The position numbers and the translations under genes were made by a program. A stretch of 64,000 nt of DNA from a virus (taxonomy: Duplodnaviria > Heunggongvirae > Uroviricota > Caudoviricetes), in IMG/VR virus record IMGVR_UViG_3300042901_002340. One strand, 5' to 3'. Every line of letters begins with the position of its first letter. Within the stretch, counting starts at the first letter, position 1. The notes under the pieces were generated by a model, which did no database searches, was not told where the DNA came from, and saw nothing but the letters and a program-made list of their open reading frames with translations. Below, piece by piece: positions 4,023 to 39,716 of the stretch.

Positions 4023-4724
4023 TTATTTTATATTATTTTTAGTTAATATATCATGTACAGTAAATGGTAGTTTCTTTGCATTAAAATTACTTCCTGTATG
4101 AATTCTATGAGAAACTAGAATTTTTTGTATATTATGGAATGTTTTGTTTTGTTTGTATAATCTTATCCAAAAGTCAAAATCTTCCATTCCCTCTACATCC
4201 TCGTCCCATCCCCCTATTTCTATTGCATCGGAGGTTCTAAATAAAGATGATGAATTTACTATCTGATTATGGCCAGCGAGAAATCCACTCTTTATGTCAA
4301 TATCATTTTGATCTAAATTTAGAATGTTTGTTTTATTGTTATTTTTATCTATATAATATGCTAGTGTACCAATTACATCAAAATTTTTACAAATAGCTAC
4401 CTGTTCAGATAATTTATTTATTTCCCATATATCATCTCCGTCTATCAGTGAGATATATTCGGTATCTATTATTTTTAGTAGCTTATTAAGAGTTTTTGCC
4501 TTACCTTTATCATCACCATAGTCAACTATCGTGAATCTCTGATCTGTCTCTATTAGTGATTTTGCTATTTCTTTGCTAGAATCCACCGTCCCGTTGAATG
4601 CTATTATACATTTGAAGTCTTTGAATTTCTGAGCTAGTATACTTTCTATTGTGTATCCAAGGTATGCCTCATCATTATATACGGGCAGAAGTATTGTTAC
4701 GCTATCCATCATATAATAATCCAA
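4023..4724 (-). CDS. GT2 glycosyltransferase
   Basis: VTILLPVYN, IDGDDIW and EDFDFW motifs. Confidence 0.85.
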   Translation of the reverse strand: MDYYMMDSVTILLPVYNDEAYLGYTIESILAQKFKDFKCIIAFNGTVDSSKEIAKSLIETDQRFTIVDYGDDKGKAKTLNKLLKIIDTEYISLIDGDDIWEINKLSEQVAICKNFDVIGTLAYYIDKNNNKTNILNLDQNDIDIKSGFLAGHNQIVNSSSLFRTSDAIEIGGWDEDVEGMEDFDFWIRLYKQNKTFHNIQKILVSHRIHTGSNFNAKKLPFTVHDILTKNNIK

Positions 4725-5503
4725 TTTTCACAATATACATCACTTGGATTCTTTTGCATATAAGGTCCAAACCAATTTGAAGGTGCTATCGTTTTTTTAC
4801 TGTTAGCTAACCAAGAACCCCACCAACTGAATGAACTATTTGCTATTATATGACCATGGCATAATGACATTAAATACATATCAATATAGGGGCTTCCTGA
4901 TTCAACTATTGTTGAATTATTGATGTGTAGGTTCTGTCTGCACCATTCTGGATCATCGGAAAATATATAAAAATTTGAATTTGTATCGAAGTGTCCTGCT
5001 GCCTTCATATAATATTCTACGCTCTGAGTTGGATGATGTCCAGGTGAAGTTAGGTAATCTCCTCTTCTAACATGAACAGAAACACCGTTTTCTATATCTA
5101 TATGACTCTTTGAATCATCTATAATATCATCTCTGAATGTGAATATTTCTCTTATTTCTGAATCTATGAACTTGAAGTACTTTTCGGTTTGAAAGTATCC
5201 CGATAATGAAGTCGAATCTGGTAGTGTTCCCGTTTGTGTATTAAATCCGAAATCTGTTTCGTAATATATGTGATTTATCGGTATTTCACCGCTTGTCTTT
5301 ATTAGATTTTTTGGTATATTAAAACATTCCAATAATTTGCATCCATCATATGAATTCGGATCTGAACCCTGCTGAAATCTTTCAGCGGGAAAAACTGGAT
5401 CAAATCCAAGTTTTCTAGCTATTCCTATGGTTGAAGCAAATTGAAACATTTGATTACCAAATCTTCCCATGTGTCCAATATTATTAAAAGTTATCATAAT
5501 CAA
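4709..5503 (-). CDS. GT11 alpha-1,2-fucosyltransferase-like protein
   Basis: GRFGNQMFQ, VHVRRGDY and IIANSSFSWW are hallmark GT11 motifs. Confidence 0.9.
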   Translation of the reverse strand: MIMITFNNIGHMGRFGNQMFQFASTIGIARKLGFDPVFPAERFQQGSDPNSYDGCKLLECFNIPKNLIKTSGEIPINHIYYETDFGFNTQTGTLPDSTSLSGYFQTEKYFKFIDSEIREIFTFRDDIIDDSKSHIDIENGVSVHVRRGDYLTSPGHHPTQSVEYYMKAAGHFDTNSNFYIFSDDPEWCRQNLHINNSTIVESGSPYIDMYLMSLCHGHIIANSSFSWWGSWLANSKKTIAPSNWFGPYMQKNPSDVYCENWIII

Positions 5504-23886: not shown

Positions 23887-23935
23887 TCGACAGTTTCGAA
23901 CCTGTCATACTTTGAGTAATTAATTCAAAGCTTTG

Positions 23936-24061
23936 TGGGGAAGGGTGGATTCGAACCACCTATTATAACATATGAAATTAATTTTATCCTTCGAAGTAAC
24001 TCAAAATCTTACTACTTATCAAAGAGAACATTGATCAGAGTGTCTTTTTTGTTGCTTCCCC
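23936..24061 (-). ncRNA. Y-RNA-like family member with tRNA ends outside
   Basis: Acceptor GGGGAAG/CTTCCCC and a T-arm enclose the same stem motifs as 32296-32740, in swapped order. Confidence 0.5.
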
Positions 24062-24519: not shown

Positions 24520-24788
24520 GGTTAAGAAATAATGATGGAGTACCCGTCTCGCTCCATTCTTAAGTGCTTCTTCAGTTTTACTGTGCACAGGCACATTCCT
24601 TTGCAGGGGGTGTTGAATTTCTTAATCTACACATGGTTGTCGACACCGATGAGCAGGAAACCCCATTATTTCTATTTGTATATTTTATTGCCAGTTCTTG
24701 ATGCTTCTCTATATTTAGATAAGCTGTTCTATTGTTTCTGCAAGTCTACTCGCTATAAATAGCGGACTGTTTGGAATAAAATAAATTG

Positions 24789-24862
24789 TGGTCCCTGTAG
24801 GGCTTGAACCTACGACCCCCTGATTATGAGTCAGGTGCTCTAACCAACTGAGCTAAGAGACC
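24789..24862 (-). tRNA. tRNA(CAT), probably Ile2 (lysidine type)
   Basis: Cloverleaf, loop CT-CAT-AA; Ile2-like acceptor GGTCTCT/AGGGACC-A. Ile versus Met assignment is inferred. Confidence 0.8.
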
Positions 24863-25210
24863 GTTATTAAAAAAAAGAAATATCCAAACCACTTTCACAT
24901 CCCTTTACTCTTTGGTTTACCAGTCTTGCGTGACTGTGCTGGTCTAATCTCATTTCTGATATTAGAACGGTCTATTGCGTCAGGGTATGGCAACCAATAG
25001 ACTTGGACCTCTCCAAAAATATTTCTTTTAATTCTTTATGTTAATGAACGTTATTTTGTTTATTATTATATTGCAAAAGTATGATATTCTTTCGGGATAA
25101 AAAAATTATTTTTGATATTTTTTTGAATCTTTATTGTCTTATGATCCTTAATAATTACATTGCAAATTTATGAATTATTTTTGAAATAAAAAAATATTTT
25201 TTGATATTTT

Positions 25211-29281: not shown

Positions 29282-30862
29282 TTAGATCACAATGGCTTCG
29301 ATTTCTCTCAAAATTGCTTTTGGATCAACCTCAGCTTTTTTGATCATCTCGTAGATATCAGCAGAGTAACCAAAAAGTTGAACTAATTTGTTACCTGGTT
29401 TGAACATGGTTGTACCATATCCTTGAATATCCACCGTGTAGATGAACGGCTCACCGTGTTTAGATTTGTAAGATTGGAAAGAACTGTTTGTAACGATTCT
29501 ATCACCACCTTGTAAATCCGATATGATGAAGACGCGGTCATATTTACCGCTTGATTGTAAAGTTGAGAAGATTGAACCGAAGTCCGTACCGTGTCCAACC
29601 CTACCTTGTAAGCTTAAACATGTGTTTTTGATAGTGTTTATGCTATCACCTGGATTGTATCTAATATCCTCAGTTGTTGTTGCAAATTGATATAAATCAG
29701 CACCAATACCTTTTGCTAGGGTTGCTCCGATAAGAGCAGCTTTATCGATACAGTGTTTATTGATAGCTTTACCATTCATTTTAACACCTTGACCCATTCC
29801 GTGCATAGATCCTGACGTATCTATAACAACAGCAGTTCTACCATGTGAGAATAATTCAACCAAGTTTGGTATTGCTAACTCGTAAGCTTTATTTAAAGCA
29901 GTAACGAATGGTCTAGATGCAGAAGCACTAGTTTCTTGTAAAAGAATCTCCAAAGCAATATCTATTTGGTGTGGGAAAACCAATGATTTTCTGATTAATT
30001 TCTCATCGATTAAAAGCTCACATGCTCCACTAACTAATTCAGAGTTTGCGCTTGTGTTGATGATGTTTCTTAAGTTACGAAGCAATGCCAAGTAACCAAT
30101 TTTTCTTGTTTTAATCAATTCAGCATAGTTGCTTTCTTTAGCCTGTGTTAATTCAACTTCAGCTTGAGCCTTGGTGATTTCCCCAGATTTAACTTTTGCA
30201 GCAACATCTTGTCCAGCTTTTGAGTTTTTATCCTCAACTGTATTGAACTGTTTTAATTTACCGGTCATAAGATCTTTAAAAACACCTTCCATTTGTGTGG
30301 TTGCTGGTTTTGGACGAACCAAGTTAACAACATCCACAAGAGAAACTGATTTTCCTTTACCTTGATATTTAGCTAATTCGTAGGTATCTGCTGATTCCAA
30401 AGCTGCTTTAAAACCTTTCTTCATTGAGTTAGGTAATGGTTTACCTGGATTGAAGTGTTGGTAAGCTGCAATGATCTCTAATACGTCATCTAAACGGTTT
30501 ACAATACCCCCGGTTTTAGCATTCTTATCTCTTTTTGAGAAGAATCTTTTACCTATGGCTGAACCAGATAAATGTTTAACTAATGACACAGATCCAAAGT
30601 GTGTTACAGATCTTTGTCCAACAACTGTTCTCGCGTACACGAGCGCTTTCGCGACGAATTCAATATCTTTTTTAGATAATTCGTCGATGAGTTGAATGAG
30701 TCTATTCTCTCTATCTGATAATTTTTCGTAGTATGAATTGTCTAATCCAGTGGTAAGAATTGCAATTAATTCCAATTTTGGATCATACTTCACACCAGTA
30801 CCACCTTGGTGGTTTGTAACTGTCTCTACAGTTCTTTTTACTTTTTGGTTGTAACGTGACAT
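29282..30862 (-). CDS. rsr: TROVE-domain/Ro60 (Rsr) RNA-binding protein
   Basis: TNHQGG start, AKYQ, YLALLRNLRNI, vWA MIDAS motif IDTSGSM, RVFIISD. Confidence 0.88.
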   Translation of the reverse strand: MSRYNQKVKRTVETVTNHQGGTGVKYDPKLELIAILTTGLDNSYYEKLSDRENRLIQLIDELSKKDIEFVAKALVYARTVVGQRSVTHFGSVSLVKHLSGSAIGKRFFSKRDKNAKTGGIVNRLDDVLEIIAAYQHFNPGKPLPNSMKKGFKAALESADTYELAKYQGKGKSVSLVDVVNLVRPKPATTQMEGVFKDLMTGKLKQFNTVEDKNSKAGQDVAAKVKSGEITKAQAEVELTQAKESNYAELIKTRKIGYLALLRNLRNIINTSANSELVSGACELLIDEKLIRKSLVFPHQIDIALEILLQETSASASRPFVTALNKAYELAIPNLVELFSHGRTAVVIDTSGSMHGMGQGVKMNGKAINKHCIDKAALIGATLAKGIGADLYQFATTTEDIRYNPGDSINTIKNTCLSLQGRVGHGTDFGSIFSTLQSSGKYDRVFIISDLQGGDRIVTNSSFQSYKSKHGEPFIYTVDIQGYGTTMFKPGNKLVQLFGYSADIYEMIKKAEVDPKAILREIEAIVI

Positions 30863-30891
30863 GATTATAATTGTTTATTCGTTTATATTAT

Positions 30892-31272
30892 AAAATTGAG
30901 TTATCGAAAAGATAAAGCATATAGACCAGGTCAAATGCAAGATCAATGTCAAAGACCTTCCTCTATCGCAAAGGCAAGGACAAAAACTAAGTCTCGTTAG
31001 TTAGCCAATTATCTGCCTAGTGGTAAAGAGGTATCTTTCTCTATGGCTTTCAGTAACTTGTCTAACAATTGAGTTCTATCTCAGTTTTGTTTATTTTTAT
31101 AGAAGAAGCGGAGTTTTGAGGCTCCCGAAGGAACCTCACAATTGCTGTATATGATTAATAGTCATTTATCTTATAAGATAATGGCTTGACGCCATTAATT
31201 AAAGGACCTTATCTCTCCGAATCAAAGCATCAGGGGAATCGGCTTTTGCTTACCCCATCAGCACCTCAATTT
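30892..31272 (-). ncRNA. Candidate ~380-nt structured RNA
   Basis: No sense-strand ORF; closed by AAATTGAG/CTCAATTT; internal hairpins and hexamer-periodic repeats. Confidence 0.5.
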
Positions 31273-31277
31273 ATTTT

Positions 31278-32201
31278 TTATTTTTCTAGTTGTTTCAGAA
31301 ACTCATCAACAACTGGTTGGAATCTAGCATCAACCTCGATTTTAAGGTTTACCGCTTCCGTGATTTTATTCTGACGCTCAGTTTCGAAATCTAGCTGAGC
31401 TTTTTTATAATCAGCTAGCCAAGATTCTCTCTTTTTGCTGTACTCGTTCATAGAAAGAGCATTTTTCTCGTTTACCTCAGCTTGCGCATCGGCATTCAAT
31501 TTAGAGATTCTTGCATTCTCCTTGGTTACTGAATTCTTAACCTTCGATTTGAAGTAGTTAACTCTTTGTTCATAGCCTCTATGAAGAGCTGCCAACTCCT
31601 CGTGTGTTTTTAATAGTTCCTCAGACTTGTGATGCACGTTAACCTTGATAGGTGTTTTCTTACCCACCTCGACCTCCATAAACTCAAGGAGCTGAATCTT
31701 AGGCAATTCAGATCTTAAACGATCTAACGTTCCACCTTTATGTATGAATTGACCTATGTGTGAAGCATAAGCCTCAGCCTCGATGAATTCATTATATTCT
31801 TCCATTGAGAGTTGTTCCCAACCCCAATCCTCACTAACTTGAGAAAGAACTTCAGGTTGAACACTAGGTTCCCTCGTCGGTGCCGGATTTTCATTCTCGT
31901 AATCGAAATACTCGGTTTTGATCCCGTTTATCATCACATCCTTAGCTTTTATATTCTCCATTAGGAAAGCCTGGGTTGCATGCAATCTCGCCTTTGATTT
32001 AAGAAGTTCTACAACATCAGTAGGCATAGGTTTTGCAGCGGTTAACTTATGATCCTCCTTAGAGATCTTTATCGTTTTTGATGCGTTATTGATATCAGCT
32101 AAAGCTGCAGTGATATCTTTTGATCTTTGGTTACAAAGATTTGATACTGATTGAGCTTGAGACATTGATAATCCTTTTGATGCTAATGAATTTCTTTTCA
32201 T
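31278..32201 (-). CDS. Coiled-coil hypothetical protein
   Basis: Helical Lys/Glu/Ala-rich 307-aa ORF transcribed just upstream of the TROVE gene. Confidence 0.8.
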   Translation of the reverse strand: MKRNSLASKGLSMSQAQSVSNLCNQRSKDITAALADINNASKTIKISKEDHKLTAAKPMPTDVVELLKSKARLHATQAFLMENIKAKDVMINGIKTEYFDYENENPAPTREPSVQPEVLSQVSEDWGWEQLSMEEYNEFIEAEAYASHIGQFIHKGGTLDRLRSELPKIQLLEFMEVEVGKKTPIKVNVHHKSEELLKTHEELAALHRGYEQRVNYFKSKVKNSVTKENARISKLNADAQAEVNEKNALSMNEYSKKRESWLADYKKAQLDFETERQNKITEAVNLKIEVDARFQPVVDEFLKQLEK

Positions 32202-32295
32202 GATGTTCTAATTTTTGTTTTTATATTTTACTTTTAAATTTCTACAATAAAAAAGGGATTAAGTCGCTTGGCGTCCTAATCCCTTTATAAAACTA

Positions 32296-32436
32296 ACAGA
32301 GAATGATGTAAGAAGTGTGAACAATTTAATGTCTGATTTACTGTCAGATGACTTAACCACTTGTCTAAATTTCCATTTTGGCGGAAACTATCGGAGTCGA
32401 ACCGATGTGCGATGTAACTTCTATACTTACTACTGT
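32296..32436 (-). ncRNA. Y-RNA (YrlA)-like RNA A, permuted Tyr-like tRNA domain
   Basis: Order: T-arm, acceptor 3' strand plus GCCA, linker, acceptor 5' strand, D-arm, anticodon arm (GTA), all inside an outer stem. Confidence 0.7.
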
Positions 32437-32445
32437 CGTATGTTT

Positions 32446-32600
32446 TATAAGGGAATGATGTAAATAGCGTTTTTTCTAACGTGCTCTACCAACTGAGCTA
32501 TTCCCCCAAATTTTTAATTTGTTTGGTGGGGGAAGATGGATTCGAACCACCGACACCGTGCTTTCAATGCGCGAAGTAACTATTTTACTGACCACTTATA
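32446..32600 (-). ncRNA. Y-RNA (YrlA)-like RNA B, Phe-like tRNA domain permuted at the anticodon
   Basis: TTGAAA-GCACG, T-arm, TTCCCCC-ACCA, linker, GGGGGAA, D-arm, inside an outer stem. Confidence 0.7.
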
Positions 32601-32610
32601 ATATGTTTTT

Positions 32611-32740
32611 TGTAAGGGAATGACAGGACGAAAGAAATGATGTTTTTGTGGGAGTTGAACCCACTACCTTAAATACCAAAAATTTACGATCTACCAAATG
32701 ATCTAAAAAACGATGAATTTCGTTACCTTTACCACTTACA
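32611..32740 (-). ncRNA. Y-RNA-like RNA C, non-permuted Gln(TTG)-like tRNA inside the outer stem
   Basis: TGTAAGTGGT...GTCATTCCCTTACA encloses a complete cloverleaf. Confidence 0.65.
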
Positions 32741-32817
32741 ATAATACTTTTCAATGAACGTTTTTGTGATTATTATATAAGAGAAAATCCTCTTTGTTTC
32801 ATAAAAAATCAACATTT

Positions 32818-33432
32818 TTATTTTTTTCTTTGTGTTTTTCCGAATTTCCATCCATCTGGTGGAATTTCTTCCTTACTCAATCTTGCATTCTCTGTCCCGT
32901 TTGTTATCCAACCGAGACCTTTCAATTTATTTTGTATTGCTCCTAATTTCCAACCTTCTGGTATGGAGACATCACTTTTAATTTTTTTTGAATTTGTACC
33001 ATCGTTAATCCATCTGGTTCCAAATTGTGAATTTTTATTTCCCTGTTGATTCCCTAGATTCCTCGATGAGATATGCTTTAATTCACCGCTTAGATATCTT
33101 GGATCATCGACTCTTACATTTATAAAATTTCCATCGTTGTCAATTACTGTTGAGAATCCATTTGTATGAAAACTTTTTCCTGGAACATGATAATTTCTAT
33201 TTAGTTGATTCCTTATATTTTTATAGATCTCTATAGATTCAAATTCAATTGCTTCCTCTCTATTACTAAAACCTTCACTTAGTATCATTTTTCTAAGTTT
33301 TGTTTTATCAGGATTCCATGTTTTCATTGATCCTAGATATGAATCTATTGATGGGTGAACCTTACTGCTTCTGCTTCCTATATAATATTCACCAGTCTCT
33401 ATATGCTCAACCTTATAAACGTAATGATACAT
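32818..33432 (-). CDS. GIY-YIG homing endonuclease
   Basis: YVYKV...YYIGSR...YLGS; GNKNSQFGTRWINDG. Confidence 0.8.
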   Translation of the reverse strand: MYHYVYKVEHIETGEYYIGSRSSKVHPSIDSYLGSMKTWNPDKTKLRKMILSEGFSNREEAIEFESIEIYKNIRNQLNRNYHVPGKSFHTNGFSTVIDNDGNFINVRVDDPRYLSGELKHISSRNLGNQQGNKNSQFGTRWINDGTNSKKIKSDVSIPEGWKLGAIQNKLKGLGWITNGTENARLSKEEIPPDGWKFGKTQRKK

Positions 33433-33491
33433 AATTTTTTCATTTATATATCATTACTTCGTTTTTATTTCGGAAACGAAGTAACTTTTTG

Positions 33492-39468: not shown

Positions 39469-39645
39469 ATTATTGATAAAGTTGTTTTTGTTTAATAAAC
39501 CTGTCTGGTTTATTAAAACTTTTCCACTTTATCGTATTGATTTAGTTTCCATTATGTCAAAGATCCTTCTTTATCTGCATCGCAAATGTATGAAATGCTT
39601 TCGAATTAAAAAAATATTTTTTAATAATTTTTTTAATTTTATTTG

Positions 39646-39716
39646 TTGGGATACCAGGGTTCGAACCTGGACGAACAGAATCAAAATCTGTGATGCTTCC
39701 ATTACATCATATCCCA
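39646..39716 (-). tRNA. tRNA-Gln(TTG)
   Basis: Cloverleaf, U1-A72. Confidence 0.88.

Follow-up and report, generated by a model that had tools for sequence, protein, structure and literature searches.

Three tandem Y-RNA-like units in a phage Ro60 locus join one shared handle to tRNA-like bodies in different topologies

YrlA is a tRNA-like Y RNA that is bound by bacterial Rsr/Ro60 and is also carried by phages, and in M. smegmatis it is cleaved by RNase P and receives an added CCA (Chen et al. 2014, PMC4201824). The Deinococcus radiodurans RNA Yrn1 places its Ro60-binding stem at the acceptor position and a stem-loop at the position of the anticodon arm (Chen et al. 2014, PMC4201824). The closest solved phage system is that of Thermus phage phiLo, in which binding of Ro60 to two tandem Y-like RNAs encoded upstream of its gene, Yrl1 and Yrl2, was seen by electrophoretic mobility shift assay and cryo-electron microscopy, and in which the complex engages the host polynucleotide phosphorylase (PNPase) (Hu et al. 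2025, PMC12135203; PDB 9KOP, 9L5Y); a report of YrlA in 22 phages, Bacillus phage G among them, is cited in the same paper. In phage Bas63, a Ro60-like protein encoded upstream of the phage tRNA genes counters a defence system (PMC11482910). Here we describe an array of three Y-RNA-like units upstream of a Ro60 gene in a 64,000-nucleotide stretch of DNA (the window) from IMG/VR virus record IMGVR_UViG_3300042901_002340. The window is the reverse strand of part of a 430-kb phage genome with direct terminal repeats, and the source phage is a distant relative of Bacillus phage G.

The three units lie where an earlier sequence-only reading of this DNA had placed them, on the minus strand and in the 5'-to-3' order C (32610–32741), B (32445–32601) and A (32295–32437), with spacings of about 8–10 nt. 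The array is closed on the same strand by an intrinsic terminator at 32246–32286, a hairpin of -18.5 kcal/mol (z -4.3) followed by a U run, which is kept after the array in two related loci (L004 and L007). A scan for sigma-70 promoters returned matches no more frequent than in shuffled sequence. The outer stem that the units had been said to share is a real module present in all three, which we refer to as the handle. Its 5' side consists of stem 1, a bulged U, (G/A)G, U(A/C)A, stem 2 and the anchor GUUAC(U/A)UCG, and its 3' side of the partner strand of stem 2, (A/G)UCAUU, C(C/U) and the partner strand of stem 1. Unit A has AG:CU in place of the GG:CC step of units B and C, so that a compensatory change can be seen already within the window. 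Four copies of the 9-mer GTTACWTCG lie in the window, on the minus strand only, against 0.43 occurrences expected, and AGTTACWTCG is found six times in the forward and not once in the reverse orientation of the whole genome; the unit C anchor is degenerate (AUUCAUCG), and its orthologues in relatives carry the exact motif. Across the family described below, the handle has an outer stem of 5–10 bp of free sequence, the bulged U, a 2-bp R-G:C-Y step, an asymmetric internal loop of 3 nt over about 6 nt, and then the second stem with its near-invariant 5'-strand GUUAC(U/A)UCG. Pairs are standard in 91–99% of cases in the outer stem (helix 1 including the R-G:C-Y step) and in 82–94% in stem 2, with many pair types. 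The handle carries in this way the hallmark of Y RNAs, a long stem joining the 5' and 3' ends with a conserved bulged helix and a conserved motif in the 5' strand.

Unit B has the topology of YrlA, with the handle replacing the anticodon stem. The 5' strand of the handle leads into the anchor GUUACUUCG (32580–32572), a small hairpin, a 3-bp stem and the T arm (32551–32535), followed by an acceptor stem closed by an ACCA loop (32534–32501), the D arm (32498–32483), an A-rich linker and the 3' strand of the handle; this is the YrlA course from outer stem through T arm, loop-closed acceptor-like stem and D arm back to the outer stem. In a local search, unit B aligned end to end with the Rfam YrlA model (RF02553) at 33.8 bits (E 1.7e-5), so that the Rfam search proposed in the sequence-only reading left it below the gathering score of 69 bits. 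The permuted tmRNA model of Rfam gave 17.8 bits, where its gathering score is 47, and its match was confined to the T-arm and acceptor part; ARAGORN detected no tmRNA in the window, and tRNAs alone were found there by Rfam at gathering thresholds. The earlier description of unit B as permuted at the anticodon stands, being the YrlA layout, and its Phe(GAA) label is unsupported because the unit has no anticodon arm and the "GAA" lies in the A-rich linker, where it is not conserved as an anticodon. Further likenesses to YrlA are the presence of more than one Y RNA per locus, NCCA in some of the closing loops, and a position on the Ro60 strand less than 2 kb from the gene, the array being 1.4 kb upstream of Ro60 and thus inside the distance of about 4 kb, on the same strand, that is typical of YrlA. 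In contrast to YrlA, the handle carries GUUACUUCG in place of the 5' motif GNCGAAN0-1G and its outer helix has a conserved bulge-and-loop pattern of its own; the same handle also bears whole tRNAs and the variable-arm design of unit A, neither of which we found described for YrlA in the parts of the literature that could be searched. The phiLo RNAs, which resemble the present ones in their tandem arrangement upstream of the gene, differ in being defined by a CGAA motif in a stem-bulge-stem, and a term search of that paper (PMC12135203) found neither "tRNA-like" nor "anticodon". A conserved CGAA motif in the handle is unsupported across relatives, where the bases that follow the invariant CG are mostly U/A and then A/U, not AA.

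Unit A holds a full cloverleaf that is closed at its acceptor end and carries the handle at the position of the variable arm. The anchor GUUACAUCG (32418–32410) is followed by the T arm (32406–32390), a 7-bp acceptor stem closed by the loop GCCAAAAU (32389–32368), the D arm (32365–32350) and the anticodon arm (32348–32332) with the loop CAGUAAA and the anticodon GUA at 32341–32339. The 3' half of the tRNA precedes the 5' half, and once the acceptor loop was cut open and the ends at the variable loop were joined, ARAGORN reported a complete tRNA-Tyr(gta) with every linker tried, which bears out the proposal of a Tyr(GTA)-like tRNA permuted at the variable loop. The internal NCCA noted for units A and B is present in the window (GCCA and ACCA, respectively) but is not conserved, since the nearest relatives show GCUA (L005, unit A) and ACUA (L004–L006, unit B) at this position. 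Permuted tRNA genes are known from Cyanidioschyzon merolae, where bulge-helix-bulge structures for the splicing endonuclease flank the junctions, which fall in the anticodon, D or T loops. Unit A resembles these genes in placing the tRNA 3' half (T arm, acceptor 3' strand and CCA) before the 5' half and connecting the acceptor ends by a short linker, and differs in that its junction is at the variable arm and has a different, Ro60-linked helix. A bulge-helix-bulge is absent from the unit A junction, where the helix has a 1-nt bulge, 2 bp and a loop of 3 nt over 6 nt.

In unit C the handle surrounds a whole, unpermuted tRNA-Gln(UUG), with the tRNA body at 32639–32712, the acceptor stem running on into stem 2 of the handle, and the anchor at 32718–32711. 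The unpermuted Gln(TTG)-like cloverleaf that had been read from the sequence was recovered by ARAGORN as tRNA-Gln(ttg) and by the Rfam tRNA model at 55.2 bits (gathering score 29), with a 7-nt anticodon loop; the body contains a C1-A72 mismatch and has a G+C content of 33%. Against the C-type covariance model R2 (see below) the unit scores 147 bits, with standard pairing in 12 of 12 handle pairs, and orthologues are present in five related loci (L004–L008). Among C-type units, especially those with a shortened acceptor stem, the layout is that of Yrn1; in Yrn1, however, the "anticodon" loop is of 6 nt and the D arm is incomplete, whereas the C-type units are full cloverleaves with 7-nt loops of the tRNA pattern. 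The 28 tRNA genes found by ARAGORN in the window are all on the minus strand, and they include canonical phage tRNA-Tyr and tRNA-Gln genes (the latter at 39645–39716) whose specificities are duplicated by unit A (GUA) and unit C (UUG). The bodies are not close to these tRNAs of the phage itself, which speaks against the suggestion that the units arose by repeated capture of different tRNAs, and recent capture of the phage's own tRNAs was rejected: unit A matches at about 50 of 72 positions and unit C is unlike the canonical tRNA-Gln.

A search with the Ro60 protein identified 19 viral loci with 28–97% identity, in which the units recur on the Ro60 strand. A simple definition of a candidate (the anchor with at most one mismatch and the 5' core UR-G-Y-R at the right distance) yielded 55 candidates, 54 of them on the Ro60 strand and one opposite, and a best stem 1 of at least 7 bp was found for 23 of the 55 compared with 18 of 275 shuffled controls. 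An exact-pattern scan of IMG/VR contributed 118 more loci, in which many single matches are, by a rough estimate, due to chance. Scoring of consecutive pairs in both stems misplaced several 3' partners because stem 2 has bulges, and covariance models were used instead; three were built from the window units and near-identical copies with hand-drawn structures, and then searched against all loci. For the A-type model (R1, 22 distinct sequences), 98.0% of cells are standard pairs compared with 35–46% in slid controls, compensatory changes are present in 33 of 36 pairs, and none of 500 shuffles was as good. The B-type model (R3) covers 34 distinct sequences including the copy in Bacillus phage G (4969–5128, 96 bits) and has 94.4% standard pairs (slid controls 41–48%), with 96–100% pairing and compensatory changes in the T, acceptor and D helices; the only helix to fail is the 2-bp CG:CG pairing that had been drawn between the unit B anchor and a 3' CG, which is 67% paired across relatives and is unsupported. 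The counted alignment for the C-type model (R2) contains 87 distinct sequences, ordinary tRNAs included, 47 of them rows with a handle, and has 95.7% standard pairs overall (slid controls 46–49%) and 82–96% in the handle helices; 39 C-type units are left once rows overlapping A or B units are removed. The handle alone, in 31 distinct units not of the A type, has 94.7% standard pairs compared with 46–56% when slid. All of these paired percentages lean upward somewhat, because the alignments were fitted to models, yet the gap to both controls and the pair types seen per position leave little doubt that the covariation is real. A covariance model of the outer stem had been suggested in the sequence-only reading as a check, lack of covariation there being taken to count against it, and the covariation found is strong. 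Altogether the models support about 98 units in 44 loci of IMG/VR phage contigs; two or more types occur together in 25 of these loci and all three in 10.

The presumed protein partner is a Ro60/TROVE protein of 526 aa encoded at 29282–30862 on the minus strand (Pfam TROVE, E 8e-11; PHROG 850, E 5e-31), and its best solved relative is phiLo Ro60 (9KOP/9L5Y, E 5.5e-19). The array is upstream of this gene and on its strand, as had been stated, but the terminator, an open reading frame (ORF) of 307 aa (31278–32201, minus strand) and a 415-nt spacer next to Ro60 (30863–31277, minus strand) that holds no handle motif intervene. The ORF was considered as a conserved partner and rejected, as neither Pfam nor PHROG gave a match for it, it lacks homology to gp539 of phage G, and L007 does without it; in L007 the spacer is missing too and the array abuts Ro60. 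In all 28 further loci with Ro60 inside the fetched stretch, the units are on the Ro60 strand. A whole-contig search of the 15 unit-bearing contigs without Ro60 in the fetched locus located TROVE elsewhere in eight; the seven TROVE-negative contigs are all at most 38% complete, and all unit-bearing contigs with a completeness of 60% or more encode TROVE (four of the four searched contig-wide). The notion of a diversified Y-RNA-like set tied to Ro60/TROVE is sustained by this co-orientation and by the 10 loci in which the topologies recur together. Ro60-like (DUF2828-vWA) genes of Felix O1-type and other phages, described as a different branch of the protein family, are said to be accompanied by small RNAs with a different handle motif, of the UACAGCAA type.

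The anticodons of the units change quickly. In four phages whose unit A copies are 98% identical, the anticodons are GUA, GUA, GAA and CAU, and the 7-nt anticodon loop accounts for five of the nine variable columns (Fisher p 4e-6). Throughout the A-type alignment of 22 sequences, variability among unpaired columns peaks at positions 34 and 35 (1.88–1.89 bits) while the loop keeps C32, U33, A37 and A38, and 14 different anticodons occur, including AAA, AAC and AGG. To our knowledge, these three are not used by bacterial tRNAs. At the C position, the same acceptor, D and T arms are combined with Gln(UUG) in the window and with Lys(CUU) in L004 and L005, and the anticodon of a further unit, C0, is UUG in L004 and L005 and UUA in L006. 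As a control, orthologous canonical tRNAs of the same phages showed no anticodon change in 23 comparisons. The amino-acid labels given to the units earlier are accordingly unstable, with GUA, GAA or CAU in near-identical unit A bodies and no anticodon in B. We also observed two handle-borne tRNA bodies, L006 3890–4023 (UUA) and L066 1601–1734 (UCA), that would read stop codons.

We consider it probable, from comparison of the sequences, that the units serve the phage Ro60 as its Y RNAs, the handle being the part that binds and the tRNA body a displayed functional surface. Unit B is connected to YrlA by its topology, the handle connects units A and C and the short units (see below) to unit B, and co-occurrence and co-orientation connect the handle to TROVE. 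The units would then be two-part RNAs made of a portable handle and an exchangeable body, either a tRNA or a tRNA mimic, whose junction with the handle is the acceptor end in C, the anticodon stem in B (as in YrlA) and the variable arm in A. After transcription and processing, which like Ro60 binding are presumed here, the handle would serve as the Ro60-binding module, placed where the GNCGAA/CGAA motif and the bulged helix sit in known Y RNAs, and the body would offer its elbow, its acceptor and, in units A and C, a true anticodon loop to factors that recognise tRNA. Such Ro60-bound look-alikes may act as decoys or tethers for anticodon-specific host factors, or may recruit exonucleases such as PNPase. 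Since the anticodon swaps fast within a preserved C32-U33-NNN-A37-A38 frame, a role in phage-host conflict over tRNA appears most likely. The genome encodes RNA ligases of the Rnl1 (T4) type and the Rnl2 type outside the window (G000:C1:10319-10846 and 32821-33360), and no RtcB was found in it; with this gene content, a decoy or tether role in that conflict is the most economical proposal. A bolder and tentative idea, possible though less likely than its negation, is that the handle-borne bodies are programmable "anticodon displays" whose triplet is under diversifying selection, each lineage baiting or blocking a different anticodon-specific host factor; its targets may include the anticodon nucleases used by defence systems, the T-box leaders by which Firmicutes sense uncharged tRNA, or a synthetase.

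Several observations weigh against assigning the units to Ro60. The Rfam YrlA model at its gathering score has no match in the window or in 12 related loci, and the published GNCGAAN0-1G motif is missing from the handle, which has GUUAC(U/A)UCG instead and shares only the CG with it. The terminator separates the array from Ro60, and some units are 5–8 kb away from the Ro60 gene. The loci were gathered through Ro60 homology or a sequence pattern, and the association statistics do not derive from an unbiased sample; the fitted alignments, as noted above, flatter the pairing. Finally, many C-type bodies are high-scoring tRNAs with full acceptor stems, and for this reason C-type units could simply be tRNA precursors.

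This last point leads to the rival that survives best, which is unlikely in our estimation: the handle would be a leader-trailer processing signal of special tRNA genes, some of them circularly permuted, with Ro60 merely a neighbour, and working tRNAs would be released by RNase P and 3' trimming after the handle is cut away and the permuted forms are religated. Unit A is indeed a complete cloverleaf with a 7-bp acceptor stem and GCCA encoded in the closing loop, and many C-type bodies score 55–61 bits over positions 1–71 of the Rfam tRNA model, but several others lack most of the acceptor stem (model positions 3–68 or 5–66), an anticodon arm is missing from the B-type units and any tRNA body from the short units. 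Cutting by RNase P and the adding of CCA are documented for M. smegmatis YrlA (PMC4201824) and the phage has Rnl1- and Rnl2-type ligases, whereas the NCCA is lost in the nearest relatives and a splicing endonuclease is not known in this setting, in which no search for an endonuclease gene was made. The anticodon loops keep the C-U-NNN-A-A frame expected of tRNAs, although the triplets they frame include AAA, AAC and AGG in the A type and, in units A and C, duplicate canonical tRNAs of the phage. The tight link to TROVE is left without explanation.

A second rival, which we regard as rather improbable, has the handle recognised by another factor, either an RNase III-type enzyme that splits a polycistron or an unidentified phage protein, so that the co-occurrence with Ro60 would reflect only the shared tRNA-island neighbourhood of large phages. 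RNase III sites of phage T7 contain bubbles, and the handle has a likeness to them; the units are also 8–10 nt apart in one promoter-to-terminator block, and the handle sequence is unlike the published Ro60 motif. A general processing device is nevertheless not indicated, because only one of the 28 ARAGORN tRNAs in the window, the tRNA-Gln of unit C, clearly bears a handle. Sequence-specific recognition by a protein is suggested by the conserved bulge and by GUUACUUCG, which is single-stranded and nearly invariant, and among the candidates for that protein the 307-aa neighbour is not conserved, as seen from L007 and phage G, whereas TROVE occurs in all of the unit-bearing contigs above the completeness given earlier. 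A reading of the units as functionless chance repeats and decaying tRNA pseudogenes is hardly credible in spite of their AT-rich bodies, the C1-A72 mismatch of unit C and modest single-unit minimum free energy z-scores (-0.8 to -2.4), being excluded by the counts of compensatory covariation in all helices across Ro60 relatives of 28–97% identity, and it also conflicts with the strand bias of 54 to 1 and the conserved array order.

Beyond the three topologies of the array, further forms of the family are present in the window and in related loci. A putative fourth topology, read from the sequence at 23936–24061 on the minus strand, has an open acceptor stem (GGGGAAG/CUUCCCC+A), a T arm and the handle as an internal hairpin followed by GUUACUUCG. 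Counterparts were noticed in L009 (about 5270–5435), L010 (about 4275–4415) and L011 (about 2900 and about 4700), with covariation of the acceptor stem, and two further T-arm-like hairpins follow the window unit at 23920–23800. The remnant of the C0 unit is at 33454–33484 on the minus strand, an isolated GUUACUUCG in a hairpin directly after tRNA-Ile; the unit is intact at the same place in L004–L006, and in the window an ORF resembling GIY-YIG homing endonucleases (32818–33432, minus strand) shares the space with the remnant. Short units, about 80 nt long, consist of the complete handle and anchor around an A-rich interior of 40–50 nt with no tRNA fold, and were observed in L007 (4408–4490 and 5688–5765), L008 (5008–5090), L010 (4623–4711), L013 (8211–8288) and L018 (7676–7754); they may be the counterpart of YrlB. 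A handle predicted around tRNA-Met(cat) at 24756–24895 on the minus strand (R2, 51.5 bits) is doubtful, with no GUUACUUCG anchor and a poor stem 1, and is probably not a true unit. In Bacillus phage G (L001), a second handle-like 5' motif, GAAGCGGGAAAACAGCUACUUCG, occurs at about 3430 on the minus strand in the unannotated 1-kb gap between gp540 (TROVE) and gp539. In L085, the stretch 4621–5009 directly upstream of Ro60 matches the Rfam permuted tmRNA model at 60.5 bits (gathering score 47).

Earlier publications cover the YrlA layout, loci with several Y RNAs, Ro60 genes in phages and a Y-like RNA of phage G. In the searchable literature and in Rfam we found no description of the handle, of the variable-arm design with an intact anticodon arm, of whole tRNAs in the same handle, of three topologies in one array, or of the hypervariability of the anticodon. 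Current Rfam models miss this widespread phage RNA family, in which tRNA bodies are attached to one presumed protein-binding handle in at least three, and probably four, topologies, and whose variable-arm permutation is an addition to the known rewirings of the tRNA fold. The handle family represents a natural experiment on why bacterial and phage Y RNAs imitate tRNA, a question that has stood since 2014, and the units offer clear constructs for binding, cleavage and decoy assays. Anticodon loops that change among copies otherwise 98% identical point to the anticodon as a functional surface of the Ro60 particle and link phage Ro60 to the tRNA-centred arms race of anticodon nucleases, RNA ligases and phage tRNA sets. 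If the anticodon-display reading is true, it would provide a concrete job for the tRNA-like domain of Y RNAs and a new counter-defence strategy.

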